Under the pieces are notes generated by a model. It did no database searches, had not been told where the DNA came from, and saw only the letters and a program-made list of their open reading frames with translations. From an uncultured Candidatus Saccharibacteria bacterium (GTDB taxonomy: Bacteria; Patescibacteriota; Saccharimonadia; Saccharimonadales; UBA10212), in contig CAYTYX010000001.1 of the NCBI GenBank assembly GCA_964442325.1, forward strand, positions 57,485 through 121,484: 64,000 nt of DNA, read 5' to 3'. Numbering within the stretch: position 1 is the stretch's first letter; the number at the start of each line of letters is the position of its first letter. Positions 7,643 to 33,560 of this stretch are shown here, piece after piece. Position numbers and translations under genes: made by a program.

Positions 7643-8098
7643 ATGAGACGAGGAGTCGCAAGAAGCCTCAACGAGTTCGATCACCAAGTTGTCCTAGTTG
7701 GCGAGCTTCGTTCTCAACTAGAGACGCTCGAAGCGGAGAAAAAAGCAGTCATCGCCAAGATCGAGAAGCGACAGCAAGTTCTACGAGCTCGGCTAGAGCG
7801 GATCGAGCTCAACATCGGTCGCTTCTACTTCGCCCGTGGAGCCGAATTCTTCAAGGCAAAGACCAAGACAATCGTCACGCGCTCTGGTGGTCGGGTGTGG
7901 TCCCGCAAGTCCAGGTTCGTGCATCTGCACAGGGCCGAACAGACGGTTATCGCCGAGATCATCGCCAGTGGGAATTGGAAGCGATTCCTGCGAATCGAGC
8001 TCAACCTGACAGCCCTCAAGAACAATCCCGGGTTTGCGGCCTGCGTTCACGCGCCGATTCGGGAAAAGGAAGTGGTGATCATCACGCCGGCCGAGTAA
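7643..8098 (+). CDS. phage Mu Gam-like host-nuclease inhibitor family protein
   Basis: 151 aa. N-terminal coiled coil (ELRSQLETLEAEKKAVIAKIEKRQQVLRARLERIE) followed by the beta-rich K.K.I..RSG.V..RKS...V...AE..VI..I...G...F.R.E..L...ALK pattern of the Gam-like family. GGGAGGG SD 5 nt upstream. Much higher GC than its neighbours. Confidence 0.6.
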   Translation: MRRGVARSLNEFDHQVVLVGELRSQLETLEAEKKAVIAKIEKRQQVLRARLERIELNIGRFYFARGAEFFKAKTKTIVTRSGGRVWSRKSRFVHLHRAEQTVIAEIIASGNWKRFLRIELNLTALKNNPGFAACVHAPIREKEVVIITPAE

Positions 8099-8111
8099 GC
8101 CAAGACCTAGT

Positions 8112-8146
8112 GTGCCCCGGCAACCCGCCGGGGCACATCTCTTTTT
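8112..8146 (+). terminator. rho-independent terminator after the Gam-like gene
   Basis: GTGCCCCGG-caacccg-CCGGGGCAC stem-loop followed by a T-run (atctcttttt). Confidence 0.75.
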
Positions 8147-8175
8147 ATAGATACCTAGACTCTAGACGCTTTTAA

Positions 8176-8490
8176 TTATTTGGACCTAGATTGCTTATCC
8201 AGTGCCCATTGCACAGACGGGCTTATTGGCTTGTCCTTGCGATGAATACAACCAATCCAGCAACAGGGACGGCGCATCCCTTCTTTGAGTTCCGAAATCA
8301 CCCGCCTAACATGTCCATCCCGTGTTTTCTGTTGTTTGACTGTTATGGTCCAGCAAATCCACTCATTACGTGCCAGTGGTGTAAGGTCTTGCCACCGCTC
8401 TAGCGCCGATTTGTCAGAAATAAGTGCCTGTCGTAAATCCGCCGGCACCTTATGTACCACGCCTTCAGAAATTTTCGTAGCCATGGGCAT
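8176..8490 (-). CDS. YdeI/OmpD-associated family protein
   Basis: 104 aa with LTPLARNEWICW...KQQKTRDGHVRRVISELKEGMRRPCCW, typical of the YdeI/OmdA (DUF1905-associated) C-terminal domain. Confidence 0.65.
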   Translation of the reverse strand: MPMATKISEGVVHKVPADLRQALISDKSALERWQDLTPLARNEWICWTITVKQQKTRDGHVRRVISELKEGMRRPCCWIGCIHRKDKPISPSVQWALDKQSRSK

Positions 8491-21231: not shown

Positions 21232-22131
21232 TTATGCTTGCCGCACCGGCGGTATAATATCCCACACCAGCTTGGCTGGTCGGGGACTGGTGGGTTGTAC
21301 AATTACCCCCACGTTTGGCACAGGTTCTATGAATGTATCGGTAGCAGTATCTGTAACAACCACCGGCGATTCAACTCGCCGCCGATTGTGCAGGTAAACT
21401 GCCAGCACCGAGATTTGATACATCGCCAGAATCGGCAGCGTAAAGAAAACCAGATTGGTAATATCGGTAGTTGGTGCCATTACCGCCGCGGCAATAAAGG
21501 CAAAGGCAATCACGTAACGCTCCCAGCCCAGAAGCCTTCGCGGGCTAAGCGGCTTGATGCGATTAATAAACGTGATAATTAGCGGCAACTGGAACAATAT
21601 GGCCGAACCAAGCAAATACATCGTGATAAAGCTCATATATTCCTGGATGGTCAATAGCGGTCTAATTTGGGTAGTCGTAAATTGATGCGATAGAAAATGC
21701 AGCAGCAAGGGCAGGCCGAGGTAGTAGCCAAAAACGCCACCGGCTATGGCAAAGACAAACGAGTAAAAACTATAGCGCAGTATTAGCGAACGCTTATGAT
21801 GGCCTAGCAGCGGCTCAAGGTAGCGCACAATCTGATAAACAATTACCGGGATGCTTAAAGCGATTCCAAAATACAGGCACACTTGGAACAAAAAATTGAG
21901 TCCACCGCCCGGCGTGGTGTAAATAAATTGCTGGCCATGCGACGGTTTGAGTAGCCAGGTTACAATTTGCTGCTGAATAAAATAGCCGGCCAGCGTGAAA
22001 CCAACTACCGAAACTGCGACATAAAACAATCGTCGGCGCAGTTCGTGCACGTGCTCTATAAACGGCCGTTTTAGATCAAGCCGCGTGTGAAGCTGGTGGT
22101 TGATCGTCTGATTTTGGTTTGTCGCTTCCAT
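21232..22131 (-). CDS. tatC: twin-arginine translocase subunit TatC
   Basis: 299 aa, 6 TM, with an N-terminal FIEHVHELRRRL motif. Its 5' end overlaps tatA by 56 nt if Met1 is used. Confidence 0.88.
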   Translation of the reverse strand: MEATNQNQTINHQLHTRLDLKRPFIEHVHELRRRLFYVAVSVVGFTLAGYFIQQQIVTWLLKPSHGQQFIYTTPGGGLNFLFQVCLYFGIALSIPVIVYQIVRYLEPLLGHHKRSLILRYSFYSFVFAIAGGVFGYYLGLPLLLHFLSHQFTTTQIRPLLTIQEYMSFITMYLLGSAILFQLPLIITFINRIKPLSPRRLLGWERYVIAFAFIAAAVMAPTTDITNLVFFTLPILAMYQISVLAVYLHNRRRVESPVVVTDTATDTFIEPVPNVGVIVQPTSPRPAKLVWDIIPPVRQA

Positions 22132-22396: not shown

Positions 22397-22723
22397 ATGC
22401 AGCAATCGATAGTAGCTGATGTTTACGGTGGTGGCAACTACGGCGCTGGCCAATATTCGGCCACGGGCGTAACTGGCTCTTCTAGCTCTACAACTTCTGG
22501 CTCCGGTAGCAGCACAACCGGCACTTCGAGCTCTCCAACCACCACTCCAAGCTCCCCGACTACCACTACTCTGCAGCCGGCCGCTGGTAGCCCAGCCCCA
22601 ACAACTGTCGCATCGGCTAGCCACGTATGGTTGTGGTCGGCGATTATTGTATTTGCAGTCGTGGTGGTAGTACTGCTGTGGCGGCGACTTCGTCGCCATA
22701 AACAACTTGACGTTTACTATTAA
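22397..22723 (+). CDS. Ser/Thr/Pro-rich C-tail-anchored small protein (first gene of the fibre locus)
   Basis: 108 aa with a low-complexity STP-rich stretch, a C-terminal TM helix (VWLWSAIIVFAVVVVVLLW) and a basic tail. GCAAGAGGA 9 nt before the ATG resembles the leader motif of the paralog genes. Confidence 0.55.
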   Translation: MQQSIVADVYGGGNYGAGQYSATGVTGSSSSTTSGSGSSTTGTSSSPTTTPSSPTTTTLQPAAGSPAPTTVASASHVWLWSAIIVFAVVVVVLLWRRLRRHKQLDVYY

Positions 22724-22733
22724 TCCTCATCTC

Positions 22734-22845
22734 AATCTCTTGTATAATAACCTCAAGCACTTAAAGTAGCGCAAGAGGGAGTTTTTAAAGACAAACAATG
22801 GCTAGACTGCCAATACCTGGTTCTGATGACGGCACCTGGGGAGAT
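22734..22845 (+). repeat. 112-nt block identical to 30863-30974 (promoter, 5' leader and first 16 codons)
   Basis: Base-by-base comparison by eye. Identity runs from aatctcttgtataat... through ...ggcacctggggagat. Confidence 0.85.
22741..22748 (+). promoter_or_regulatory. TG-TATAAT promoter -10 element of paralog 1
   Basis: cttgTGTATAATaacctcaagcac is conserved upstream of four paralogs, about 50 nt before the ATG. Confidence 0.5.
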
Positions 22846-25125
22846 ATCCTCAATTCTTTTTTAGAAGTTGAGCATAATGCTGACGGCAGCCAAAAGACTC
22901 TACCAATAACCAAAGGCGGCACTGGTGCGACTGATTCTACCGCCGCCCGAACCAATCTAGACGTTCCATCAACCTCCGACTTAGGCTCTAAAGCTGACGA
23001 CTCCACTGTTGTCCACCTCGCCGGCACCGAAACCATCACCGGCAATAAAGACTTCACTGGCTCCATAACCAAGAACAGCGCCAACCTCATCACTAGAATC
23101 CAGGATGCGACGGATGTCAACCTAGCCGGCGCGGCTGATGGTGATCCGGTCGTCTTCGACTCGGCATCGGGCGGGGCGAAGCACACATCCCCTTCATTTA
23201 TTAGTGCCTACAGGCTAACTAGTGACGGTACGACCGTAAGGGCGTACGACAAAACGGGTGCGCAGATTGCTTCTAACGCTGACGGCGGGGCTGTCTTGCA
23301 AGCAGTCTTCACGGCCATGCCCGCCGCAGGCGCACATATTGCATTCCGCAACGACGGCAATGTTTTCCCCTGGGCAACGACGCCACTCATCCCGAAGAAC
23401 ATAAGTAAGAAACTACTAATTCAAGGAAATGGTGCCACTGTTATACTGTCTGCTACCGCTCCGATCTTCCTTGATGTTAACCGCACTCTTCCCGGTGACA
23501 CGTTCCAGAACTTCGAAGTCTCCGATTTCATCATTAACCGCAACAACGTGAACCCGGCCCTTGGTGCTCCCGTCGTCCTCGGCGCATCCACCTCGTTCCG
23601 GATCAACTGGAACCACATCACCATTCGCCGGATCAAGACAATCAACGTCCCGACGAACGCAGGTACCGGTGCGATCAACCGAAACGTAGAAATCATCAGC
23701 TACCATACGGATGCTGGCGAAGCGCAGACCAACGTTACCGACATCCTTATCGAGGACTGCGATTTCGGGGGCGGAAACTACGGCGTTTTTGTCGGCGGGT
23801 TGGTTGTAAATGGTCGCTCCTGTGAAGTGCTTGTAGACCGGATCAAAGTCTACCGAGTCAAGCACGACACGCTTTCACTTAACAATACCAACACACTGCG
23901 TGGCGACGTACATGTGCATATCGGTGGTTTCGGCTTTGGCGGGAGCTGCGTCATCCGCGATTGTGAAGGCTTCAATACAGGCGACACCGGCTACGAGATT
24001 GACTCGATGATGTTTGCCATAGTTGATGGCTGTATCGCCTCTGATTACTGGTCAAAGGGCTTCCTTCTTCGCAACTTCCGGGCTGTACAAGATGTTAATT
24101 CTCAGCTTTACGTCGTTCGTGGTTGCAAAGCAGCAATCGTCAATTTGGTTGGAAATGAATGTCCACCGATTCAGTCGCAGAACGGTTTCTGCCTTCCAGT
24201 GCTGAATACAGACACTCCGTTTGGGCACATCGTTATTTCAGACTGTGAGTGGCATACCAAGCAATCTCAATTGGGGGACGGCACCGGAGATATGCTTGGC
24301 TTGGCAATACTGAATCTCTGGCAGATTCAGAGCATCACTGTACGTGATTTCACCATGGTTGCCGATTCACTTGCTGATACCTATGTAGGCGGGACGCTTA
24401 GGTTTGATACTGCGATCATGCTTTTTCCTGCAACTGATAATGCAAAAATCAGACTTGAAAACATCCAGGTAATCACGGCTGGAACGGTAACTACACAGCG
24501 ACGTTTGTGGTGGATTCGGGTTGGTTCAACTGGCAGCCACCCAGTTTCTTTTACCTGCGACGGCATTTGGTTCTCACCTGGTACTACGGGCGGTGGTAAT
24601 GGGCATCAACGGCTCGTCAGCCTCGGCGCGGCTCTCCCGGATGTTACAACTATGCGCGGGGTAATGCGTCGGGTTGGTGTCATCAACTACACCTCCGACG
24701 ACACACAGCCAGCCGGGATCGGAATAGAGGGCCAGAACCAGCTTGTCGTTGACGGGCAACTAGTTTTCGAAGACTGCGACTTCCGCAAGTTCCCAGGCAG
24801 TGCGGCTGATATTCAGTTCGAGGCGACCGGTACGTCGAATGCGGCATTCGTTAACGCCGTACGTATAAAAGGCCACATTTACCCATATAGCGCTACAGTC
24901 ATCACACCCAACGGCTCACCGTTCATCTGGCAGAACCTGCTCGGATATAGGGCGAAGCTACTGATCTTCGGCGGCACCGTCTCGGATATCCAGTGGTCGA
25001 ACGACGGTAGCACATACCGAGACACGGGATTCATAACCGGAGCAACTATCGATGTTGATCCTGGAGACTACGTGCAGGTCACCTACACCGGAGCGCCAAC
25101 GATGCGTGCCTTCCAGGTCAAATAG
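22798..25125 (+). CDS. tail-fibre/tailspike-like paralog 1 (constant N-module plus beta-helix-like body)
   Basis: 775 aa starting MARLPIPGSDDGTWGDILNSFLEVEHNADGSQK. Carries KGGTGATDSTAARTNL and KADDSTVVHLAGTETITGNKDFTG motifs, then repetitive Asn/Gly/Val-rich segments (ILIEDCDFGGGNYGVFVGG, CVIRDCEGFNTGDTGYEID) suggesting a parallel beta-helix. No signal peptide or TM helix. Confidence 0.75.
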   Translation: MARLPIPGSDDGTWGDILNSFLEVEHNADGSQKTLPITKGGTGATDSTAARTNLDVPSTSDLGSKADDSTVVHLAGTETITGNKDFTGSITKNSANLITRIQDATDVNLAGAADGDPVVFDSASGGAKHTSPSFISAYRLTSDGTTVRAYDKTGAQIASNADGGAVLQAVFTAMPAAGAHIAFRNDGNVFPWATTPLIPKNISKKLLIQGNGATVILSATAPIFLDVNRTLPGDTFQNFEVSDFIINRNNVNPALGAPVVLGASTSFRINWNHITIRRIKTINVPTNAGTGAINRNVEIISYHTDAGEAQTNVTDILIEDCDFGGGNYGVFVGGLVVNGRSCEVLVDRIKVYRVKHDTLSLNNTNTLRGDVHVHIGGFGFGGSCVIRDCEGFNTGDTGYEIDSMMFAIVDGCIASDYWSKGFLLRNFRAVQDVNSQLYVVRGCKAAIVNLVGNECPPIQSQNGFCLPVLNTDTPFGHIVISDCEWHTKQSQLGDGTGDMLGLAILNLWQIQSITVRDFTMVADSLADTYVGGTLRFDTAIMLFPATDNAKIRLENIQVITAGTVTTQRRLWWIRVGSTGSHPVSFTCDGIWFSPGTTGGGNGHQRLVSLGAALPDVTTMRGVMRRVGVINYTSDDTQPAGIGIEGQNQLVVDGQLVFEDCDFRKFPGSAADIQFEATGTSNAAFVNAVRIKGHIYPYSATVITPNGSPFIWQNLLGYRAKLLIFGGTVSDIQWSNDGSTYRDTGFITGATIDVDPGDYVQVTYTGAPTMRAFQVK

Positions 25126-25150
25126 CGCCTACTCACTCCTAGCCGATTCT

Positions 25151-25158
25151 TGTATAAT
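25151..25158 (+). promoter_or_regulatory. TG-TATAAT promoter -10 element of paralog 2
   Basis: Same ttcttgtataataacctcaagcac context as at 22741. Confidence 0.5.
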
Positions 25159-25207
25159 AACCTCAAGCACTAACTAGTGATGAGAGGGAGTTATTTAAAG
25201 ACAAACA

Positions 25208-26803
25208 ATGGCTAGACTACCAATACCCGATTCCGATGATGGCACCTGGGGAGATATATTAAACTCCTTTTTGCTGGTTGGTCATAGCACCGATGGCTCA
25301 CTCAAGAACGCCGAAACTCCAGCAGGTGCACAAGCTAAAGCTGACGTCGCCCAAAGCGCCGCCGAAGCAGCCTCTATCCCAACCACCGCCCTAGACACCG
25401 ACACTACCCTAGCTGCCAATAGTGATAGCCGAGTTTCTTCGCAAAAGGCCGTAAAGTCATACGCGGATGCGCTTGGCGATTCGATTCCCTCCGTGGGGAA
25501 GACGTATCCGCTTGACGCAGATAATAATATGGGAATCGGCGACCAGCTTGCATTTCTGCAGATTGGTGCCACAGGCACCGGACAAACGCGCGTAACTTCT
25601 AGAAACATCGCATTAGGTTCGCTTGCAGGTGATTCATGGACAACCGATACCGAAGAGACCGCGGTTGGCTATCAGGCGATGCAGCATATGCAAAACGGTC
25701 GTGCCAATACCGCGCTCGGGCAGGGTGCGATGCAAAACGCGACTGGTGGCGATCGCAACGTTGCTGTTGGCACCGGGACGCTCAATTCACTCACCGGTGG
25801 TCTGTTCCCGGGCACGACCAACGGAACGTTCAACACCGCTGTAGGCGATGCCGCCTGCACGAGTCTGACAACTGGGTACTCCAACGTTTCGGTTGGTAGT
25901 GCGTCGATGTCGGCCGCTACGACCGGTTACCATAACACAGCCGTTGGCGAATCGGCCCTGACGGCACTGACGAACGGATTTGAGAACGTAGCGATTGGCA
26001 GCAGTGCTCTCAGCCATGCGACTGCGGACGCAGATCTTGTGGCAGTTGGTCCTTTCGCGATGCAGAACACGAACGGAGGTGCGGGAGGCGTCGCGGTCGG
26101 TTATTCAGCAATGAACGCCAACACCACTGGCTCAGACAACACCGCCGTTGGCTCTAACTCGCTGCACGCCAACCAAACTGGGACGCAGAACACCGCACTT
26201 GGTTCAAACGCACTAGCCTCATCCACTGCAGGTGGCAGCACAGCAGTCGGCTACAAGGCACTTAACTCGTCCGTAACTGGGCTGCACAACGTTGCCGTCG
26301 GTAACGCTGCGGCCAAGAACCTAACCACAAGCGATAACACGGCGATTGGCTTCAATGCGCAGAACGCAAACACTACGGGCGCGCAGACAGTCGCAATCGG
26401 CAGCAGTGCGCTTTTGAATCATAGTGGTGGTGATGGCAACGTCGGTGTTGGTTACCAGGCTGGAAACGCGATTACAGCGGGTGCATTCAATACAATTATG
26501 GGCCGCAATGCCGGCAACACCGGCTCGTCGAATGCATCCAATATGACGCTCCTGGGCTACACAACTGTAGGTGGCGGTAACTACGCAACCGCTGTTGGCA
26601 GTAGTGCTTCGGCTGGCGCCGCTGGCGCGGTTGCCATTGGCACCGACCATACCGGGGCTGGTGCCAGCGCCGGAACACAAGACTACTTCGTGCTCGGAAC
26701 CGCCAACCATAAACTGTTCATACCCGGTCTGCCGACAGCTAACCCGCACGTTGTCGGACAGTTGTGGTTGAACGCCGGCGTTCTGAATGTGAGTGCAGGC
26801 TAA
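25208..26803 (+). CDS. tail-fibre-like paralog 2 (constant N-module plus YadA-head/Hep_Hag-like repeat body)
   Basis: 531 aa with the same N-module and a DTDTTLAANSDSRVSSQKAVKSYAD motif. About 20 degenerate NTA(V/I)G..A(L/M)...T.G repeats follow. C-terminus is HVVGQLWLNAGVLNVSAG. Confidence 0.75.
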   Translation: MARLPIPDSDDGTWGDILNSFLLVGHSTDGSLKNAETPAGAQAKADVAQSAAEAASIPTTALDTDTTLAANSDSRVSSQKAVKSYADALGDSIPSVGKTYPLDADNNMGIGDQLAFLQIGATGTGQTRVTSRNIALGSLAGDSWTTDTEETAVGYQAMQHMQNGRANTALGQGAMQNATGGDRNVAVGTGTLNSLTGGLFPGTTNGTFNTAVGDAACTSLTTGYSNVSVGSASMSAATTGYHNTAVGESALTALTNGFENVAIGSSALSHATADADLVAVGPFAMQNTNGGAGGVAVGYSAMNANTTGSDNTAVGSNSLHANQTGTQNTALGSNALASSTAGGSTAVGYKALNSSVTGLHNVAVGNAAAKNLTTSDNTAIGFNAQNANTTGAQTVAIGSSALLNHSGGDGNVGVGYQAGNAITAGAFNTIMGRNAGNTGSSNASNMTLLGYTTVGGGNYATAVGSSASAGAAGAVAIGTDHTGAGASAGTQDYFVLGTANHKLFIPGLPTANPHVVGQLWLNAGVLNVSAG

Positions 26804-27042
26804 TGAAGCGCCTACGTCTTGTTAAGGTGATTGTCCAACCAGTGTTTGTGCTCGACGATGGCAATACCATCACCGAGGTCGACCATTCGCCGGTTGTAAT
26901 CCCAGCCGCCGACTGGCCAACTTATAGCGGCGAACGCTTCCCGCGCGAAGTCAAAGAATGGCAAGAGCGCCTAGATGCCGAGACAAAGCCCGGCCAACCC
27001 CAAGACCTCTCTCCGCTAAAGGACGAGCCCAATAAAAAGTAA
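26803..27042 (+). CDS. small fibre-associated protein, single-domain member (candidate assembly chaperone)
   Basis: 79 aa; its ATG overlaps the paralog-2 stop (TAATG). LVKVIVQPVFVLDDGNTITEVDHSPVVIPAADWPTYSGERFP aligns by eye with the PYKFIV...FP domains at 28844-29245. Confidence 0.55.
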   Translation: MKRLRLVKVIVQPVFVLDDGNTITEVDHSPVVIPAADWPTYSGERFPREVKEWQERLDAETKPGQPQDLSPLKDEPNKK

Positions 27043-27074
27043 ATAAACTAGTCTTAAACCTCACCTCAATCTCT

Positions 27075-27082
27075 TGTATAAT
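27075..27082 (+). promoter_or_regulatory. TG-TATAAT promoter -10 element of paralog 3
   Basis: The cctcaatctcttgtataat context is shared with 22727-22748. The leader diverges and contains a ccttaagcttttaagg hairpin. Confidence 0.5.
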
Positions 27083-27134
27083 AGCCTTAAGCTTTTAAGG
27101 AGTGGCTAGGAGCTTTTGATAAAGATAAACACAT

Positions 27135-28847
27135 ATGGCTAGACTACCAATACCTGGAGGAGATGACGGCACATGGGGAGATATATTAAACTCTTTCCTG
27201 GTTGTCTCTCATAATACTGACGGAACTCTAAAGAGCAATTCACTGAGCTTCCCGGGTGACGCCACGATTACCTCCGATTCGGATGCATCTGGTGCCGGCG
27301 ATATCATCCTTAAAACCGCTACCACCGAACGTCTCCGCTTTAATACAGCCGGGTCGATGCTGTGGAAGAACCAAGTTCTAGTCACCCGAACCTTTCAGTC
27401 GCTGCCAAGCGCAGATATCCCCGCCGGCACCAACGTCTTAGAAATCGACGAGTATGGAAACGTGCTTTTTGGCCCTAATGACTTCCTTTTTACGCGTCAA
27501 GGCAACATCTTCCAACTGGGATCCATCGCTGACTTTATGTATCACCAGGAGACGCGGCGTATTTATACTCGTTCTGCCGCCTTCGTCGAGTTCGGCGATC
27601 CGCCGGATGTAATTATCGCTCGTGCTGGACCCGACAATATATATCCGGGCGTTGCTGGCGGCCTAGCTGGTATCCCTAGCGGCACGACCTTAGGTGTAAT
27701 CCGCTGGCAGGGCTCGTTTACACCGCAAGGTGGTACGGTCGGTGTGACGCAAGGCGGTGCGTTCCATAACGACAGCGCCCAGATATACGCCAAGGCCGCC
27801 GAGGACAATAACTTCAATGGCGGCACGTCTTATAGTCAGGGTGGTGAGCTGCATTTCGCAACAACCCCAAATGGCACAGCCACGCCCGTCGATGCGCTGG
27901 TCATCTCGAGCGACCAAACGGTGACCGCGAAGAAGGCTCTCACCGTCGCGGGACTGACTGGGGCGACCGCAACGTCCCGGTTGACTGGCGCGACGACGTC
28001 CGGTCCTCCGACAACTGGAACCTTCGCGGTCGGCGACACCGTGATCGACCGGTCGGGGTCGCTGTGGATTTGCGTAGGCGCTGGTACACCCGGCACCTGG
28101 AAACAAGTCGGGGGCACGTTCCCTGGCGGAGCGCCTGGACTCAAAAATGCCAAGTATGTGCCAATCTTTGGCTCTAACCTTGGTACTGGTGACCACGATC
28201 TCTACACTGTTCCGGTAGGCCGCCAGGCTCTCGTCGATCGTAACCTGGTCGCTTACAACATCGCCGGGTCGGGCGGAAACATCGTCTGCTACTCAGAGAT
28301 CAAGGTCGGTGGTGTTTACTACCGCGTCAGTCCGAACGTCACCATCGCGGATGGTGCCGGTGGGTCACCCGGAATGGCAGTGCATATGGTTCTCGCCGCA
28401 GGAGAAAAGTTTGCTGCCAACACCGCGACCACGGCCGGACTCAATGTGCGAGGCGGCGTCTGGGAATTCGACGCTGACGACACGAGGGTTTTCACGGCAC
28501 GCATCCTCGGGCTCGCGTCTGGAGACAATCTCCTCTACACCGTCCCTGCTGGCAAGTCGGTCGTGTTCCTTCAGGGCGCCGAGTTCGTCCCCTCGATGAC
28601 TGCCCAGATTCAGATCGTGAACAACACGGGCGGCTCGCTCAACTACTACGCGAACGCAGTGCCCTCAGGCGGCACAGTCGGCCCAACCAACCGCTGCTTT
28701 TCAGCAGTCGCGGTCGGCGACAAAGCGCTCGGCCAGATCTTCGGCGCACAACCGCTATCGCCGGGCGATTTCATCAGTGTCAACGCATCGGGTCCCGACG
28801 CGGGCGGCCACCACATCGCATGGGTTACCGGATATCAACTTCCATGA
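27135..28847 (+). CDS. tail-fibre-like paralog 3 (constant N-module, shared shaft, unique distal domain)
   Basis: 570 aa. The first ~245 aa are roughly nine-in-ten identical to paralog 4 by eye. Contains FAVGDTVIDRSGSLWICVGAGTPGTWKQVG, then a unique C-terminal ~230 aa. Confidence 0.75.
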   Translation: MARLPIPGGDDGTWGDILNSFLVVSHNTDGTLKSNSLSFPGDATITSDSDASGAGDIILKTATTERLRFNTAGSMLWKNQVLVTRTFQSLPSADIPAGTNVLEIDEYGNVLFGPNDFLFTRQGNIFQLGSIADFMYHQETRRIYTRSAAFVEFGDPPDVIIARAGPDNIYPGVAGGLAGIPSGTTLGVIRWQGSFTPQGGTVGVTQGGAFHNDSAQIYAKAAEDNNFNGGTSYSQGGELHFATTPNGTATPVDALVISSDQTVTAKKALTVAGLTGATATSRLTGATTSGPPTTGTFAVGDTVIDRSGSLWICVGAGTPGTWKQVGGTFPGGAPGLKNAKYVPIFGSNLGTGDHDLYTVPVGRQALVDRNLVAYNIAGSGGNIVCYSEIKVGGVYYRVSPNVTIADGAGGSPGMAVHMVLAAGEKFAANTATTAGLNVRGGVWEFDADDTRVFTARILGLASGDNLLYTVPAGKSVVFLQGAEFVPSMTAQIQIVNNTGGSLNYYANAVPSGGTVGPTNRCFSAVAVGDKALGQIFGAQPLSPGDFISVNASGPDAGGHHIAWVTGYQLP

Positions 28848-29245
28848 TAGAAAAAGAAGAAATTATGCCAAATACCCTATTTCCCTACAAATTCATCGTT
28901 CAAGCTGTTGTCCAGCAACTATCAAAAGATGGCCAAGTTCTGGGCGAAGTATCTTCCGAGCCGGTCCAGCTTTTTAGCACAGATCAACTGGCGGCGTGGG
29001 CCTCCAACTTCCCAGATTCCTTGGCTGATCTAAAAGAGGCTCAGACTACCGGTACAAAACTAGCACCGTATAAATTTATTGTTGAGGCAGTCGTTCAAGA
29101 AAAGGGTAAGGGTGGAAAAGTCATTGCTGAGCACAACTCGCAGCCAGCCACTCTTTTTGGATGTGATAACTTGGCTGCTTGGGCAAAAGAATTCCCAGAC
29201 AGACTAAGTAAAGCCGTAGCTCAAGAAAAATCTAAAGCTAAATAA
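28844..29245 (+). CDS. small fibre-associated protein, tandem two-domain member (candidate assembly chaperone)
   Basis: 133 aa; its ATG overlaps the paralog-3 stop (ATGA). Two repeats: PYKFIVQAVVQQLSKDGQVLGEVSSEPVQLFSTDQLAAWASNFPD and PYKFIVEAVVQEKGKGGKVIAEHNSQPATLFGCDNLAAWAKEFPD. Its stop lies 2 nt before the paralog-4 ATG. Confidence 0.6.
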   Translation: MIEKEEIMPNTLFPYKFIVQAVVQQLSKDGQVLGEVSSEPVQLFSTDQLAAWASNFPDSLADLKEAQTTGTKLAPYKFIVEAVVQEKGKGGKVIAEHNSQPATLFGCDNLAAWAKEFPDRLSKAVAQEKSKAK

Positions 29246-29247
29246 CA

Positions 29248-30807
29248 ATGGCCCGTCTACCAATACCTGGCTCTGATGACGGCACTTGGGGAGATATCCT
29301 TAACTCCTTCCTGGTTGTTGCCCATAATACTGACGGAACTCTAAAGGGCAATTCGCTGACCTCTCCAGGTGATATTACGATTAGCTCCGACTCGGACGCA
29401 TCCGGCGCTGGCGATATCGTCCTTAAAACTGGCACCACCGAACGCCTTCGTTTTAATACGGATGGGTCAATGCTGTGGAAAAACCAAGTTCTAGTCACGC
29501 GAACCTTTCAGTCGAACCCGCGCGCGGATATCCCCGCCGGCACCAACGTCTTCGAAATCGACGAATATGGGAACGTCCTCTTTGGCCCTAATGACTTCCT
29601 TTTTACGCGTCAAGGCAACATCTTCCAGATGGGATCCATCGCCGACTTTATATATCACCAGGAGACCAGGCGCATCTACACACGCTCTGCCGCTTTCGTC
29701 GAGTTCGGCGATCCGCCGGATGTCATCATCGCTCGTGCTGGGCCGGATAATTCTTATCCCGGTGTCGCTGGCGGACCCGCCGGCATCCCCGGCGGCACGA
29801 ACTTAGGCGTGATCCGTTGGCAGGGCTCGTTTACACCGCAGGGTGGTACGCCAGACGTAACTCTTGGTGGCGCATTCTATAAAGACAGCGCGCAGATATA
29901 TGCCAAGGCCGCCGAGGACAATAAGTTCAACGGTGGCACGTCATACAGCCAAGGCGGTGAGCTTTATTTTGCAACTACTCGGAGCGGCACTTCTCAGTCT
30001 GTGGCCGGTTTAGCACTTTTAAACGATCAAACCTTGCAGATCCTTGGCCCGAGAGTTGTCTATAGCGGTGGAGATTTTGAGTTCTCGGGCACCCAACCAC
30101 AACTCCGCTTCGACGCTGTCACAGACTCGAGTCGCGCGATTGTGCTCTTCAAACTCGCCGGCGAGGCGCAGTCCCTCTTCGTGATGCGCATGAGCGGCGC
30201 TTTGGAATGGGGACCTGGTGGCAATACACCCTCAGACACATTCCTTGAAAGGGGAGCGGCCGGCCAGATGAAGGTCACCGGCGATCTGAACGTTACAGGC
30301 AATATTGGTGGTAGCCAGTACCGGCGTATCTCTGGCCTACCATCGACCTCGAACAACACCAACGCCGTGGTCAGCGCAGCAGATGTATATGGGATGCAAA
30401 CAAACGGCAACTTGAATACCCAGAGTGCTTCCGGTAACGTGCCAGCAATCTTCTATCTTAACCCAACCGACTTTGCGATTACTGGCAAAACGACAAAGAT
30501 GCGGCTAAGAATCGGGACACTCGTCAACGACACTGCTCCGGCCAACACAATGACCTGGGGACTTTACCCGGTGGGTAACCAAACAGGAGGTAGTGGTATC
30601 TTAAACCCCACCCTTGGTACTGTGGTGTCAGGGTCAACGGTCGCGCAGACGACCCCGGCAGCCAACGCCAAAATTACTCCTGTTTCGAGCAGTGACTTCA
30701 CTATGCCCTCGGCTGGCTTTTATATGATTGGGGCGGCGTCGAGCGGTGCGATGGCTGCCAACTCGAAGGTTGCAACGACCATCAGCCTCGAAGTCAGAAA
30801 TGTGTAG
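29248..30807 (+). CDS. tail-fibre-like paralog 4 (constant N-module, shared shaft, unique distal domain)
   Basis: 519 aa starting MARLPIPGSDDGTWGDILNSFLVVAHNTDGTLK. It has no promoter box of its own and is coupled to the preceding small gene. The C-terminal ~270 aa are unrelated to paralog 3. Confidence 0.75.
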   Translation: MARLPIPGSDDGTWGDILNSFLVVAHNTDGTLKGNSLTSPGDITISSDSDASGAGDIVLKTGTTERLRFNTDGSMLWKNQVLVTRTFQSNPRADIPAGTNVFEIDEYGNVLFGPNDFLFTRQGNIFQMGSIADFIYHQETRRIYTRSAAFVEFGDPPDVIIARAGPDNSYPGVAGGPAGIPGGTNLGVIRWQGSFTPQGGTPDVTLGGAFYKDSAQIYAKAAEDNKFNGGTSYSQGGELYFATTRSGTSQSVAGLALLNDQTLQILGPRVVYSGGDFEFSGTQPQLRFDAVTDSSRAIVLFKLAGEAQSLFVMRMSGALEWGPGGNTPSDTFLERGAAGQMKVTGDLNVTGNIGGSQYRRISGLPSTSNNTNAVVSAADVYGMQTNGNLNTQSASGNVPAIFYLNPTDFAITGKTTKMRLRIGTLVNDTAPANTMTWGLYPVGNQTGGSGILNPTLGTVVSGSTVAQTTPAANAKITPVSSSDFTMPSAGFYMIGAASSGAMAANSKVATTISLEVRNV

Positions 30808-30862
30808 GCGGGTCGCTTACTCCAGCGCTCGAATCCATCCTGTTCCTATTATCCTTCCCCTT

Positions 30863-30974
30863 AATCTCTTGTATAATAACCTCAAGCACTTAAAGTAGCG
30901 CAAGAGGGAGTTTTTAAAGACAAACAATGGCTAGACTGCCAATACCTGGTTCTGATGACGGCACCTGGGGAGAT
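30863..30974 (+). repeat. 112-nt block identical to 22734-22845
   Basis: See 22734-22845. Confidence 0.85.
30870..30877 (+). promoter_or_regulatory. TG-TATAAT promoter -10 element of paralog 5
   Basis: Lies within the 112-nt identical block. Confidence 0.5.
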
Positions 30975-32075
30975 GTATTAAACGCTTTTCTTAAAGTCGA
31001 ACATCACTCTGACGGCACTCAAAAAACCTTGTCTGTAAGTAAGGGTGGCACTGGTGCGACCAACTCTACTACCGCCAGAACCAATTTAGGGGCTATCAAT
31101 AAAGTAGCTGATGCGGCGGATGTCGCCATTACTTCGCCAGCCGACGGCGAGCCGCTTGCCTGGGATGAAGCAACCTCGAAGTTCACAAGTGGCCAGCCGA
31201 TCAAGCTGCGGAACTCTCTCGCCGTTGTCGCGGACCTGTCGCCCACTGGCGACATTTCGCCTGGGACGATCACTTTCCGGCATGACGCCTACGGCAATGC
31301 TTTCCTCGGCCCGAACGTCTACCTCCCGGCACCCGATAACTCCCTGAGCGCCGCCATCGTCATCGCGGACTTCTTCTACTCGCAACGGTTTCGACGTCTG
31401 TTCACGAGGTCAATCTGCGTCAGAGATCTCGGCGATCCCCCTGACCTCATAATCGGGCGCGCTGGTCCGGATGGCGGTTGGCCGGACAACGGAGGTCTAG
31501 GCCTAGCCGGTGTCATGAGCAACGACTCGCTCGGCAGTATCCGCTGGCAGGGATCTTTCCAGCCCAGCGGTGTAGGAATAGACACCGTTTCTGGCTTCCA
31601 GGGCGATAGCGCCACAATCTACGCGCGCGCTTCTGAGGACAACAGGCGCACTTCCGATAGCGTCTATCACCAGGGTGGTGAGCTGCATATCGCCACGACC
31701 CCGAACGGGACGTCTTCTCCGGTCGATCGACTCATCATCCAGAACGATGGAGTGTTCGATTTCCGGGGAAATAATATCAAGGTCGGATCGGCCGACTTCT
31801 CCGGAGCAGCTGAAGCCCATACGACGCTGCGGGTCGACGGCATACTAACCGCGGCGAGCGAGGTCGATGCGAACAGCGACATTAGGTTCGGAGAAGGATC
31901 CAACATCATCGTCGGCACGACAAGCGGCACAAGGATCGGCACATCAGCGACCCAGAAGCTCGGCTTCTTCGGCAAGTCGGCCATCGTGCAGCCGCTTCTT
32001 GCAACTGGGGCGGGCCACACCGTCGACGACGTCATCACAGTCCTCCAGAACCTCGGACTAGTGAGGCAGACATGA
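30927..32075 (+). CDS. tail-fibre-like paralog 5 (mosaic: paralog-1-like head, paralog-3/4-like shaft, short distal end)
   Basis: 382 aa. Residues 1-55 resemble paralog 1 (KVEHHSDGTQKTLSVSKGGTGATNSTTARTNLG). Residues ~100-275 are homologous to the paralog 3/4 shaft (GDPPDLIIGRAGPD...IRWQGSF...YHQGGELHIATTPNGT). C-terminus is QKLGFFGKSAIVQP...VLQNLGLVRQT. Confidence 0.75.
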   Translation: MARLPIPGSDDGTWGDVLNAFLKVEHHSDGTQKTLSVSKGGTGATNSTTARTNLGAINKVADAADVAITSPADGEPLAWDEATSKFTSGQPIKLRNSLAVVADLSPTGDISPGTITFRHDAYGNAFLGPNVYLPAPDNSLSAAIVIADFFYSQRFRRLFTRSICVRDLGDPPDLIIGRAGPDGGWPDNGGLGLAGVMSNDSLGSIRWQGSFQPSGVGIDTVSGFQGDSATIYARASEDNRRTSDSVYHQGGELHIATTPNGTSSPVDRLIIQNDGVFDFRGNNIKVGSADFSGAAEAHTTLRVDGILTAASEVDANSDIRFGEGSNIIVGTTSGTRIGTSATQKLGFFGKSAIVQPLLATGAGHTVDDVITVLQNLGLVRQT

Positions 32076-32194
32076 CCCTCCATCCCTACAAATTTATCGC
32101 CACGAACAATCGTAGGTGGCGTGACTGGCTCAAAGATTTGGATCAGACTCAACGGATCATGGAAGAGCGCGGCGGTCGCATGAAAAGCCTATGA
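32072..32194 (+). CDS. truncated or divergent member of the small fibre-associated family
   Basis: 40 aa; its ATG overlaps the paralog-5 stop (ATGA). It begins MTLHPYKFIA, matching the PYKFIV motif, then diverges. Below the ORF-track cutoff. Confidence 0.4.
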   Translation: MTLHPYKFIATNNRRWRDWLKDLDQTQRIMEERGGRMKSL

Positions 32195-32195
32195 G

Positions 32196-33560
32196 TTAAA
32201 ACAGTGACCAGATGGCGGCTAGGCCGGCTAGGGCCATCACGCCGGTAACACCCCAGCCCAAGGCTGTGGTTGAGCGCCGGTTGGTCCAGTCGCCCATAAT
32301 GTGCTTATTACTGCTAATCAAAACAATCAGAACCAAAACTATTGGCGCAACAATGCCATTGGCGATAGCGGCATAAATCAGCGCTTTAATTGGGTCTAGG
32401 CCAATAAAGTTTAGGCCTAAACCAACCAACATCGACACAATAATAGTGCCGTAAAAAGCGTGGGCCTGTTTGAACTTACGGTACAAACCTTCGCGTTGCT
32501 TAAAGCTTTCGGCCAAGGCATAAGAACTTGAACCGGCCAGTACCGGAATAGCCAGCAGGCCGGTGCCAATAATTCCAACCGCAAATAATAGGTAGGTCGC
32601 ATTACCGGCAAAAGGTCTAAGCGCTTCGGCGGCCTGAGCGGCCGATTTTATGTTAGTTATGCCGTGGGTAAACAGCAGAGCGCCGCAAGCGGCGATAATA
32701 AAGAACATCACCAGGTTAGACAAAAACATCCCACTCCAAACGTCAATTCGCATACTGCGAATATCTTTGTGCTTAGTAGCCTGGCGCAGCGGGATATTGG
32801 TTTTGCCTTGCAAAATTTCTTCTTCGACTTCTTGGGAAGTTTGCCAAAAAAACAGATACGGTGAGATAGTTGTACCTAAGATGCCACAAATCAGCAACAA
32901 CTGGTCTTTGCTGAAAGTAAGGTGAGGGATAACCGCATGCTTGGCTACATCACTCCAATTCAAGTGTGCCAGTAACGCCGAGGCGACATAGGCAAAAAGT
33001 ACCATCGCTAACCATTTAAGATATCTGGCGTAGCGGGCATAGGGAGTAAAAATTTGCAGCAGTGCGGTCAGCAAGCTAAAGCCAATTACCAGCATCGAAA
33101 AATCAAGACTAGGCCGCAGTAGCTGAACGCCTTTAGCCATGGCTCCTAAATCCGCGCCGATATTAAAGGCATTAGCCGCAAAAAGTAGCGTAGTACAAAG
33201 GTATAAAACTTTTTTAGAAAAATGGGTGCGGATTGTGCCGGCTAGCCCTCGGCCAGTCACTAGGCCGATGCGGGCGCACATTTCTTGCACAATCGCCATT
33301 AGCGGAAAAGTAAAAGCGGCCAGCCATAGCAAACCAAAGCCATACTGTGCGCCGGTTTGGGAGTAGGTGGCAATGCCGGACGGGTCGTCGTCGGATGCCC
33401 CGGTGGTTAGGCCGGGCCCAAGCATATGCCAGTAGTCACGGCCTTCTTTGACTACTTTTGACGGTGGTAAGTTTTGGCCAAGTTGTTCGCCAATGGCAAC
33501 TCCCTCGTCAATAACTTCACCCGGTACCTCGGCGATTCTACCCAGTAAATCCTTAGACAT
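32196..33560 (-). CDS. mntH: NRAMP-family divalent metal (Mn/Fe) transporter
   Basis: 454 aa, ~11 TM, with a GASDDDPSGIATYSQTGAQYGF motif equivalent to the NRAMP DPGN signature. Confidence 0.85.
   Translation of the reverse strand: MSKDLLGRIAEVPGEVIDEGVAIGEQLGQNLPPSKVVKEGRDYWHMLGPGLTTGASDDDPSGIATYSQTGAQYGFGLLWLAAFTFPLMAIVQEMCARIGLVTGRGLAGTIRTHFSKKVLYLCTTLLFAANAFNIGADLGAMAKGVQLLRPSLDFSMLVIGFSLLTALLQIFTPYARYARYLKWLAMVLFAYVASALLAHLNWSDVAKHAVIPHLTFSKDQLLLICGILGTTISPYLFFWQTSQEVEEEILQGKTNIPLRQATKHKDIRSMRIDVWSGMFLSNLVMFFIIAACGALLFTHGITNIKSAAQAAEALRPFAGNATYLLFAVGIIGTGLLAIPVLAGSSSYALAESFKQREGLYRKFKQAHAFYGTIIVSMLVGLGLNFIGLDPIKALIYAAIANGIVAPIVLVLIVLISSNKHIMGDWTNRRSTTALGWGVTGVMALAGLAAIWSLF

Follow-up and report, generated by a model that had tools for sequence, protein, structure and literature searches.

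Small genes downstream of fibre genes in the window

A stretch of 64,000 nucleotides of contig CAYTYX010000001.1 (positions 57,485 to 121,484 of the forward strand; hereafter the window), from an uncultured Candidatus Saccharibacteria bacterium, carries an island of five fibre-like paralogous genes, all on the same strand (Table 1). Small open reading frames (ORFs) lie on that strand directly 3' of three of them: ORF A after paralog 2, ORF B after paralog 3 and a short ORF at 32072 after paralog 5. A first-pass annotation had proposed that these three are translationally coupled to the fibre genes and encode a new family of candidate fibre chaperones. The start/stop overlaps were found as described there. 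At 26803 (TAATG) the last A of the paralog 2 TAA (26801-26803) is the first base of the ORF A ATG; at 28844 (ATGA) the ATG of ORF B overlaps the paralog 3 TGA (28845-28847), and at 32072 (ATGA) the ATG overlaps the paralog 5 TGA (32073-32075). The true start of ORF B may be an ATG at 28865 (MPNTLFPYKF), and the overlap at 28844 is not certain, since single-domain homologues begin MTLRPYKF.

Family membership was defined as a significant profile match, the cores being LRLVKVIVQPVFVxDDGxxLTE...P..V.A..W or PYKFIVQAVVQ..D.DG.V.GE...EP...FG.D.L..WA..FP. The family hidden Markov model (HMM) contains ORF A itself, and its B-type rows are ORF B homologues from other genomes. Run against all six-frame fragments of the window, it returned exactly three domain copies, namely the domain of ORF A (E 4e-38) and the two tandem copies that had been noted in ORF B (about 28874-29038 and 29057-29224, E about 1e-16 each), which are 48% identical to each other. 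It had also been suggested that ORF A is a diverged copy of the ORF B domain. This is supported, not overwhelmingly, by alignment of separate A and B profiles (hhalign E 9.6e-6, probability 83%, in the beta part). By profile, ORF A and both ORF B domains are family members and the 32072 ORF is not: its overlap and its MTLHPYKFIA start were confirmed, but as a 40-residue member of the family it falls below HMM significance. Only 9-10 of its residues, MTLHPYKFI(A), match the family, and its 30-codon tail is unrelated to the B-type gene at the same place in the syntenic locus L003 (loci in other genomes carry L numbers). The 32072 ORF is therefore regarded as a truncated remnant.

Substitutions between the small genes and their homologues fall mainly at third codon positions (16/7/39 over the three positions for ORF A versus L020; 17/12/34 for ORF B versus L003). 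This bias indicates purifying selection on ORF A and ORF B as protein-coding genes, and it rules out that they are spurious ORFs. Neither a signal peptide nor a membrane segment was found in the proteins of the ORF A/ORF B family; a holin or lysis protein was ruled out because the small proteins have no membrane segment.

Table 1. Features of the fibre island in the window
Feature	Position	Strand	Description
tatC	21232-22131	-	flanks the island
83-nucleotide upstream element, copy 1	22715-22797	+	before paralog 1; direct-repeat family D4
Fibre-like paralog 1	22798-25125	+	775 residues; small partner absent; N-terminus MARLPIPGSDDGTWGDILNSFL
83-nucleotide upstream element, copy 2	25125-25207	+	before paralog 2
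Fibre-like paralog 2	25208-26803	+	531 residues; N[TV]A[IV]G-repeat body; partner of ORF A
ORF A	26803-27042	+	79 residues; one A-type domain (residues ~3-60), disordered tail
83-nucleotide upstream element, copy 3	27049-27131	+	before paralog 3
Fibre-like paralog 3	27135-28847	+	570 residues; partner of ORF B
ORF B	28844-29245	+	133 residues (126 if the start is 28865); two tandem B-type domains
Fibre-like paralog 4	29248-30807	+	519 residues; begins 2 nucleotides past ORF B
83-nucleotide upstream element, copy 4	30844-30926	+	before paralog 5
Fibre-like paralog 5	30927-32075	+	382 residues; C-terminal module ..KLGFFGKSAIVQP..VITVLQNLGLV
Truncated B-type remnant ORF	32072-32194	+	40 codons; MTLHPYKFIA, unrelated sequence after
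Nramp transporter gene	32196-33560	-	flanks the island

The small-protein family and its pairing with fibre genes

The proposal that the small proteins form a new family, conserved outside this locus, was borne out. In a Pfam scan with E up to 1, ORF A matched no family and ORF B had only unrelated matches below threshold; PHROGs and NCBIfam scans and a profile search of PDB sequences gave no match to the small proteins. The homologues in Gordonia and Bacillus phages have no PHROG assigned, and in a literature search for the motif and related terms the family was not described. A word-indexed profile search recovered 212 family proteins, and HMMER, run exhaustively over 1.84 billion cluster representatives, recovered 485 clusters (50% identity) at E <=1e-3, 109 of them at E <=1e-10. 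The best 150 of the 485 members are 52-138 residues long and none of the 150 is fused to a large protein. Homologues start at a conserved Met (MTLRPYKF, MxxLRLVKV), and some members carry basic C-terminal tails. Most retrieved homologues of ORF A, from Solirubrobacterales and viral contigs, are 60-75% identical to it; a near-identical copy (P0012) occurs on another short contig.

At least four subtypes can be distinguished. Subtype A, that of ORF A, reads LRLVKVIVQPVFVLDDGxxITEVxHxPxxIPAAxWPTYSxERFPREVxxWQ; in 18 sequences of this type Q12, D18, H28, R45 and E49, which are polar surface positions, are invariant. Subtype B, that of ORF B, reads PYKFIVQAVVQQxDxDGxVxGExxxEPxxxFGCDxLxxWAxxFP. A B-like subtype (RPYKFLVVPVVQ...FGVDGLxRFAxxFE) is found on viral contigs, and a fourth (RRLRIAHxLVQPVLVWDDGTELT) in cultured Gordonia and Bacillus phages. 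Besides ORF B, two-domain tandem forms are few (e.g. P0139 and P0186). Such forms arose more than once (window 28844-29245; L003 5280-5675; L031 3981-4385; L029 220-636). In the three tandem cases with readable context (window paralogs 3 and 4, L003 and L031) there are two adjacent fibre or spike genes each, so it is a possibility, with three cases known, that the tandem form supplies one domain per fibre.

AlphaFold2 models were obtained for ORF A (predicted local distance difference test score, pLDDT, 81.5; strands 8-34, helix 35-60) and for ORF B domain 1 (pLDDT 85.9), which has the ORF A topology. ORF B was modelled as domain 1, MAFFT having split the single-domain homologues over both repeats, which in a two-domain model would give rise to spurious couplings between the domains. 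Both models show four short strands, then a helix and a disordered tail. Foldseek against the PDB gave best E values of 1.5 (A model) and 1.2 (B model), with no chaperone among the matches. Against BFVD the sole meaningful match was an uncharacterised 77-residue protein of Gordonia phage Barsten, of the size of gp26 (E 4.5e-3, template modelling score 0.56); Barsten gp26 was tied to the family by a later sequence search. The ORF A/ORF B family is best read as one of small cytoplasmic proteins with a predicted four-stranded beta unit followed by a helix.

The pairing with a fibre gene recurs elsewhere, as the first-pass annotation had anticipated: at about 30 independent phage and cellular loci the small gene stands directly 3' of a fibre- or spike-like gene. 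The scan of genome contigs used a narrow back-translated pattern and gave 6 of the loci. All readable loci keep the fibre-then-small-gene order, with two exceptions. The spacing runs from an 8-nucleotide overlap (L012) to a few tens of nucleotides in most loci, and ATGA overlaps are frequent; larger or distinct spacings are 64 nucleotides in L029, 216 nucleotides in L034 and, in Bacillus phage Silence, a 13-nucleotide gap with an annotated ribosome-binding site.

Cellular loci with the pair are L003-L009 and L012-L019. In the Solirubrobacterales loci (L009, L012-L018) the partners have 394-452 residues and N[TV]A[IV]G repeats, some with twin-arginine signals, and in Streptomyces hygroscopicus (L019) the pair is chromosomal. 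Signal peptides of the twin-arginine translocation (Tat) type were found on the fibre genes at L009 4808-6004, L010 6403-8154 and L012 4650-6008 (e.g. TRRRALVGITAAATGALL, VRRRQFLRTLGMVGAATVG), and this suggests that Solirubrobacterales cells may export such phage-type fibres in folded form.

Viral contigs with the pair are L020-L027 and L031-L039. The two genes lie past the portal gene in L020, directly past a tape-measure-sized gene in L021 and L027, between terminase-like and portal-like genes in L025, ahead of an SU10-type adaptor in L026 and ahead of baseplate W/J-like genes in L032 and L033; the small gene follows a BNR sialidase-like spike in L031 and collagen-like fibres in L037 and L038. 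L027 also has a separate PF16778 gene, farther downstream than the pair. Over the phage genomes the sites thus comprise positions past the portal, in the capsid/adaptor gap, past the tape measure, in the baseplate module and past the lysis cassette. Because the position varies in this way, the constant link of the small gene is to the fibre gene and not to a virion module. The small gene and a phage-type fibre or spike gene travel as a mobile two-gene cassette.

Among cultured phages, the pair was found in Bacillus phage Silence (gp6/gp7) and in the Gordonia phages Barsten (gp25/gp26), Sixama (gp85/gp86) and Dorito (gp28/gp29); in PrincePatrick the small protein, gp32, likewise comes after a fibre- or spike-like gene. 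These homologues are annotated as hypothetical, or, in Gordonia phage Yikes, not at all: there the gene is a 74-codon ORF at L040 3486-3710 (MN586003.1 4573-4797). It overlaps the stop of gp4, a 'tail spike protein' in RefSeq, by ATGA and precedes the gp5 esterase, and the N-terminal ~90 residues are common to gp4 and gp5, so that the layout mirrors that of paralog 3, ORF B and paralog 4 in the window. Against the family HMM, Silence gp7 scored E 3e-8 and the Yikes ORF 6e-4 (both Z = 1e5); the Yikes ORF matched Barsten by tblastn at E 3e-12. Just upstream of gp28/gp29 in Dorito, gp25-gp26 (L042 1975-3248) are genes of ~350 and 78 residues with a 4-nucleotide overlap; gp26 is phrog_24626 and has no similarity to the small-protein family. 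The same position may be filled by other small-partner families.

To compare the small proteins with their fibres, 24 partner fibres were aligned all against all. An N[TV]A[IV]G-repeat body is present in 15 of 16 A-type partners (paralog 2 and 14 of 15 others), the exception being Streptomyces L019, and is absent from B-type partners. The B-like 'RPYKFLVVPVVQ' subtype pairs with fibres ending ..GAADSGGxGxRMLRVxN. The 'LVQPVLVWDDGTEL' subtype pairs with a body of the Silence gp6/Barsten gp25 type, and the distinct body of the fourth subtype is common to Silence gp6, Barsten gp25, Sixama gp85, Dorito gp28 and Yikes gp4. The fibre N- and C-terminal modules shuffle independently; for example, the ..KLGFFG...LGL tail is carried by partners of the A, B and fourth subtypes as well as by paralog 5. 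Over 21 pairs, Mantel correlations between small protein and fibre were highest for the fibre middle (Spearman rho 0.60, p ~5e-4), lower for the last 80 residues (rho 0.33, p ~5e-4) and lowest for the first 60 (rho 0.14, p 0.04), with the reservation that the correlation ignores phylogeny and is confounded by shared descent, and that repeats inflate the scores. The contrast between the regions argues that the small protein would relate to the fibre body and not to the virion-docking module.

The C-terminal module, ..(K/Q)(L/I)GFFG(A/K)..PV......(L/I)...L..LGL(I/V).., was located at window 31950-32075, L021 7880-8004, L028 5870-5987 and L040 3370-3489; paralog 5, a viral-contig fibre, Silence gp6, Gordonia phage fibres (Yikes gp4 among them) and a Staphylococcus phage SAP3 tail protein have it in common. 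Over its last 40 residues paralog 5 shows 72% identity to the L021 viral-contig fibre; modules of this type move independently of the remaining fibre. In Pfam, 15 partner or paralogous fibres gave no domain above the curated cut-off, including the intramolecular chaperone Peptidase_S74 (PF13884), and partner fibres searched against PDB sequences returned nothing of use.

Organization and setting of the island

The N-termini of the five paralogs open MARLPIPGSDDGTWGD(I/V)LN(S/A)FL; their N-terminal ~30 residues are common to all and the downstream parts differ. Paralog 2 matched phrog_4636 (tail spike) at E 6e-49, and the N-terminus of paralog 1 gave weak PHROG tail-fibre matches. Paralog 4 is 86% identical to paralog 3 across the first 263 residues. 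The 83-nucleotide upstream element, which contains TCTTGTATAATA (an extended -10-like motif), then a GAGGGAG ribosome-binding site and a conserved leader, precedes paralogs 1, 2, 3 and 5 and is missing before paralog 4. We regard it as a putative promoter; a consensus promoter scan did not list these sites. The first ~100 nucleotides of the paralog genes are also common (repeat family D1). Together with the element, this means that each unit is a cassette with an identical 5' end, and such ends are a possible substrate for recombination or gene conversion.

From this arrangement the likely transcription units are paralog 1 alone, paralog 2 with ORF A, paralog 3 with ORF B and paralog 4, and paralog 5 with the remnant. 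Paralogs 1 and 4 had been described as having no small partner. It is correct that no small ORF follows either of them, but paralog 4 does not seem truly partnerless: with no element of its own and a spacing of 2 nucleotides, it probably shares an operon with paralog 3 and ORF B.

The genes around the island are ordinary cellular ones (RNase Y, phosphoketolase, MMPL, Na+/H+ exchanger, DsbA-like and tRNA genes), so that the island is considered chromosomal and not a prophage. Syntenic contigs from other metagenomes (L003-L008) carry two fibre genes and a two-domain small gene between tatA/tatC and Nramp. Their fibre-island proteins are 85% identical to those of the window, the value for the paralog 3-ORF B pair being likewise 85%. 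When window 22798-32194 was compared with L003 1267-5675, the window had, in addition, the paralog 2-ORF A pair, paralog 4 and the paralog 5-remnant unit. Therefore, with five fibre genes in the window against two in the syntenic contigs, the copy number of the island varies. Just 5' of the first fibre cassette is a putative 108-residue ORF (22397-22723), rich in Ser, Thr and Gly and with a C-terminal hydrophobic anchor; a 127-codon ORF in antisense overlaps it. The window fibres have no signal peptide, yet they adjoin tatA/tatC, which may be coincidence.

A candidate role in fibre assembly

Directly downstream of a fibre gene is the classic place for fibre accessory genes, and the small genes occupy it at the ~30 loci described above, as the first-pass annotation had pointed out. 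We propose, with a probability of roughly 0.45, that the small proteins act in trans as assembly factors specific to the fibre body. The small protein would be translated from the transcript of the fibre directly after it, often by coupled translation. It would then bind the fibre body, still nascent or unassembled, in the cytoplasm and promote or protect its folding and oligomerisation, in a manner specific to the type of body. Physical binding, the chaperone role and the stoichiometry are thus what we infer. A cytoplasmic assembly factor fits a protein that is small and soluble, has no export signal, is encoded after the fibre and co-varies with its body. The proposal fits as well with the presence of the small gene beside virion fibres and cellular fibres alike, and with partner fibres that have no recognisable intramolecular chaperone domain. 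The Tat pathway exports folded proteins; the Tat signals on some cellular partners imply that these fibres presumably fold before export, which fits the action of an assembly factor.

Known fibre chaperones offer several likenesses. Like lambda Tfa, Mu U and P2 G (Caudo_TAP), the family is encoded in the operon of the fibre gene and directly behind it; its products are small, cytoplasmic and non-enzymatic, and small gene and fibre gene move together as a recombining host-range cassette. In contrast to Tfa-type proteins, which have ~175-200 residues, the family proteins are about one third of that size (55-90 residues), do not match the Caudo_TAP profile in Pfam, and are found with Gram-positive and actinobacterial phages and at cellular loci. 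The chaperone gp25 of myocyanophage Pam3 consists of a fibre-binding beta-sandwich and a helical trimerisation domain; it surrounds the fibre gp24 in a 3:3 complex and drives the fibre to trimerise (PMC9608196). In the predicted models the N-terminal beta part and C-terminal helix of gp25 recur in miniature, and by this analogy a mechanism like that of gp25 would be the most likely one; however, Foldseek against the PDB gave no significant match, and the beta unit has here only four short strands.

The chaperones of Alteromonas phages V22 and A5 are 'transient chaperone caps', and there the module of fibre and chaperone is transferred horizontally among morphologically unrelated phages (PMC10579305). 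Dependence on the chaperone differs between related fibres in V22/A5, which parallels the window paralogs with and without a partner, but those chaperones resemble intramolecular chaperone domains, and no such similarity was detected here. The small proteins gave no match to Phage_tail_APC (PF16778) in Pfam either. The family sits in the niche of tail-fibre assembly proteins and fails every sequence or fold membership test for them that was run.

Several results weigh against an assembly role. Neither in sequence nor in fold do the small proteins resemble known fibre chaperones (Pfam, PDB profile search and Foldseek against the PDB). The core of the family is highly conserved, compared with the variable fibre-binding half of Tfa, and A-type proteins are more conserved (60-75% across distant genomes) than their fibres. 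The Mantel correlations are open to the confounding named above. Paralog 1 has no small partner; in L010/L011 the small gene lies ~200 nucleotides upstream of the fibre gene; and L001/L002 hold an orphan B-type copy with no fibre gene nearby. In L001 this B-type ORF (8001-8378, MTLRPYKFIVQAVVQ...) is fused in frame behind a degraded methyltransferase gene fragment, amid glycosyltransferase, methyltransferase and Wzy_C genes of a glycan-synthesis cluster. The first 30 nucleotides of the L001 ORF are identical at 24 of 30 positions to the window remnant at 32072, and glycan-synthesis genes also adjoin the module in L012, L025, L031 and Sixama.

The small protein might instead be a structural partner, a cap, collar or adaptor subunit that is retained on the mature fibre and that, with Tat-exported cellular fibres, would hitch-hike out with the fibre. 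Adjacency and co-variation apply equally to such a role. The invariant polar surface of the A type (Q12, D18, H28, R45, E49) fits a permanent specific interface, and the independent tandem forms (window, P0139, P0186) suggest an oligomeric building block. The boundary between chaperone and structural cap is in any case not sharp, given that the Alteromonas phage chaperones remain bound as transient caps (PMC10579305). Nevertheless, none of the best 150 family members is fused to a fibre or other large protein, and some paralogous fibres have no small protein at all, so that we consider a permanent structural subunit unlikely. It seems quite improbable that the small gene is a passenger with a function unrelated to fibre folding, for example in regulating cassette expression or in acting on the host. 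The mobility of the cassette over many sites, sometimes with its own terminator (Silence) or promoter element (window), the orphan copy in L001 and the basic C-terminal tails of some members would agree with a passenger. However, very distant lineages retain the fibre-then-small-gene order with start/stop overlap, the subtype tracks the fibre body, which a fibre-independent function does not predict, and no DNA-binding or other known fold was found.

Five paralogs with a common N-terminus of ~30 residues that diverge downstream, three of them followed by small ORFs, recall the conserved N-terminus, variable C-terminus and small downstream immunity gene of polymorphic toxins. But the small proteins are one conserved family and not hypervariable cognate sets, the partner fibres have no toxin domains in Pfam, and homologous pairs lie in phage structural modules by tape measure, baseplate W/J-like, portal and capsid genes. 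A toxin/immunity pair is thereby effectively refuted and we hold it to be very improbable. The stop/start overlaps (ATGA, TAATG) at many loci might also be read as programmed frameshifting that appends the small ORF to the fibre as a C-terminal extension. This is effectively excluded, and hardly conceivable, because spacing and relative frame vary from locus to locus (the overlap in L012 and the gaps in Silence, L029 and L034), the gene order is reversed in L010, and homologues begin at a conserved Met.

A more general form of the idea would have the family serve trimeric fibres at large, still with specificity for the type of body, both in phages of Gram-positive-type hosts and in cells with domesticated fibres, which would fold together with the small protein in the cytoplasm and then be exported by Tat as folded oligomers. 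The cells concerned would be those with the five-paralog island of the window and those with the Tat-signal fibres of Solirubrobacterales, the small protein possibly hitch-hiking. We regard this joint reading as doubtful.

That fibres have partners is unsurprising, since accessory genes of this kind are already known. What is new is the family itself, its very small size and strong conservation, and its breadth, which takes in actinobacterial and Bacillus phages, a contig of low GC (guanine plus cytosine) content and chromosomal modules. It accompanies several classes of fibre, in uncultured lineages as well as in Actinomycetota and Bacillota phages, and it is a missed class of gene, unannotated in Yikes and 'hypothetical' elsewhere, that can serve as a marker for fibre genes which Pfam and PHROGs leave unannotated. 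Missing assembly partners often make receptor-binding fibres and spikes difficult to express or engineer, and a very small conserved partner would, if the chaperone role is true, be a practical handle for fibre production. The chromosomal modules of fibre and partner, some of them Tat-signalled, suggest that cells themselves use phage-type fibres. Only if that Tat-linked cellular reading is true would the finding be a conceptual upset, as it would then represent a previously undescribed route by which phage-derived fibres are placed on the cell surface.

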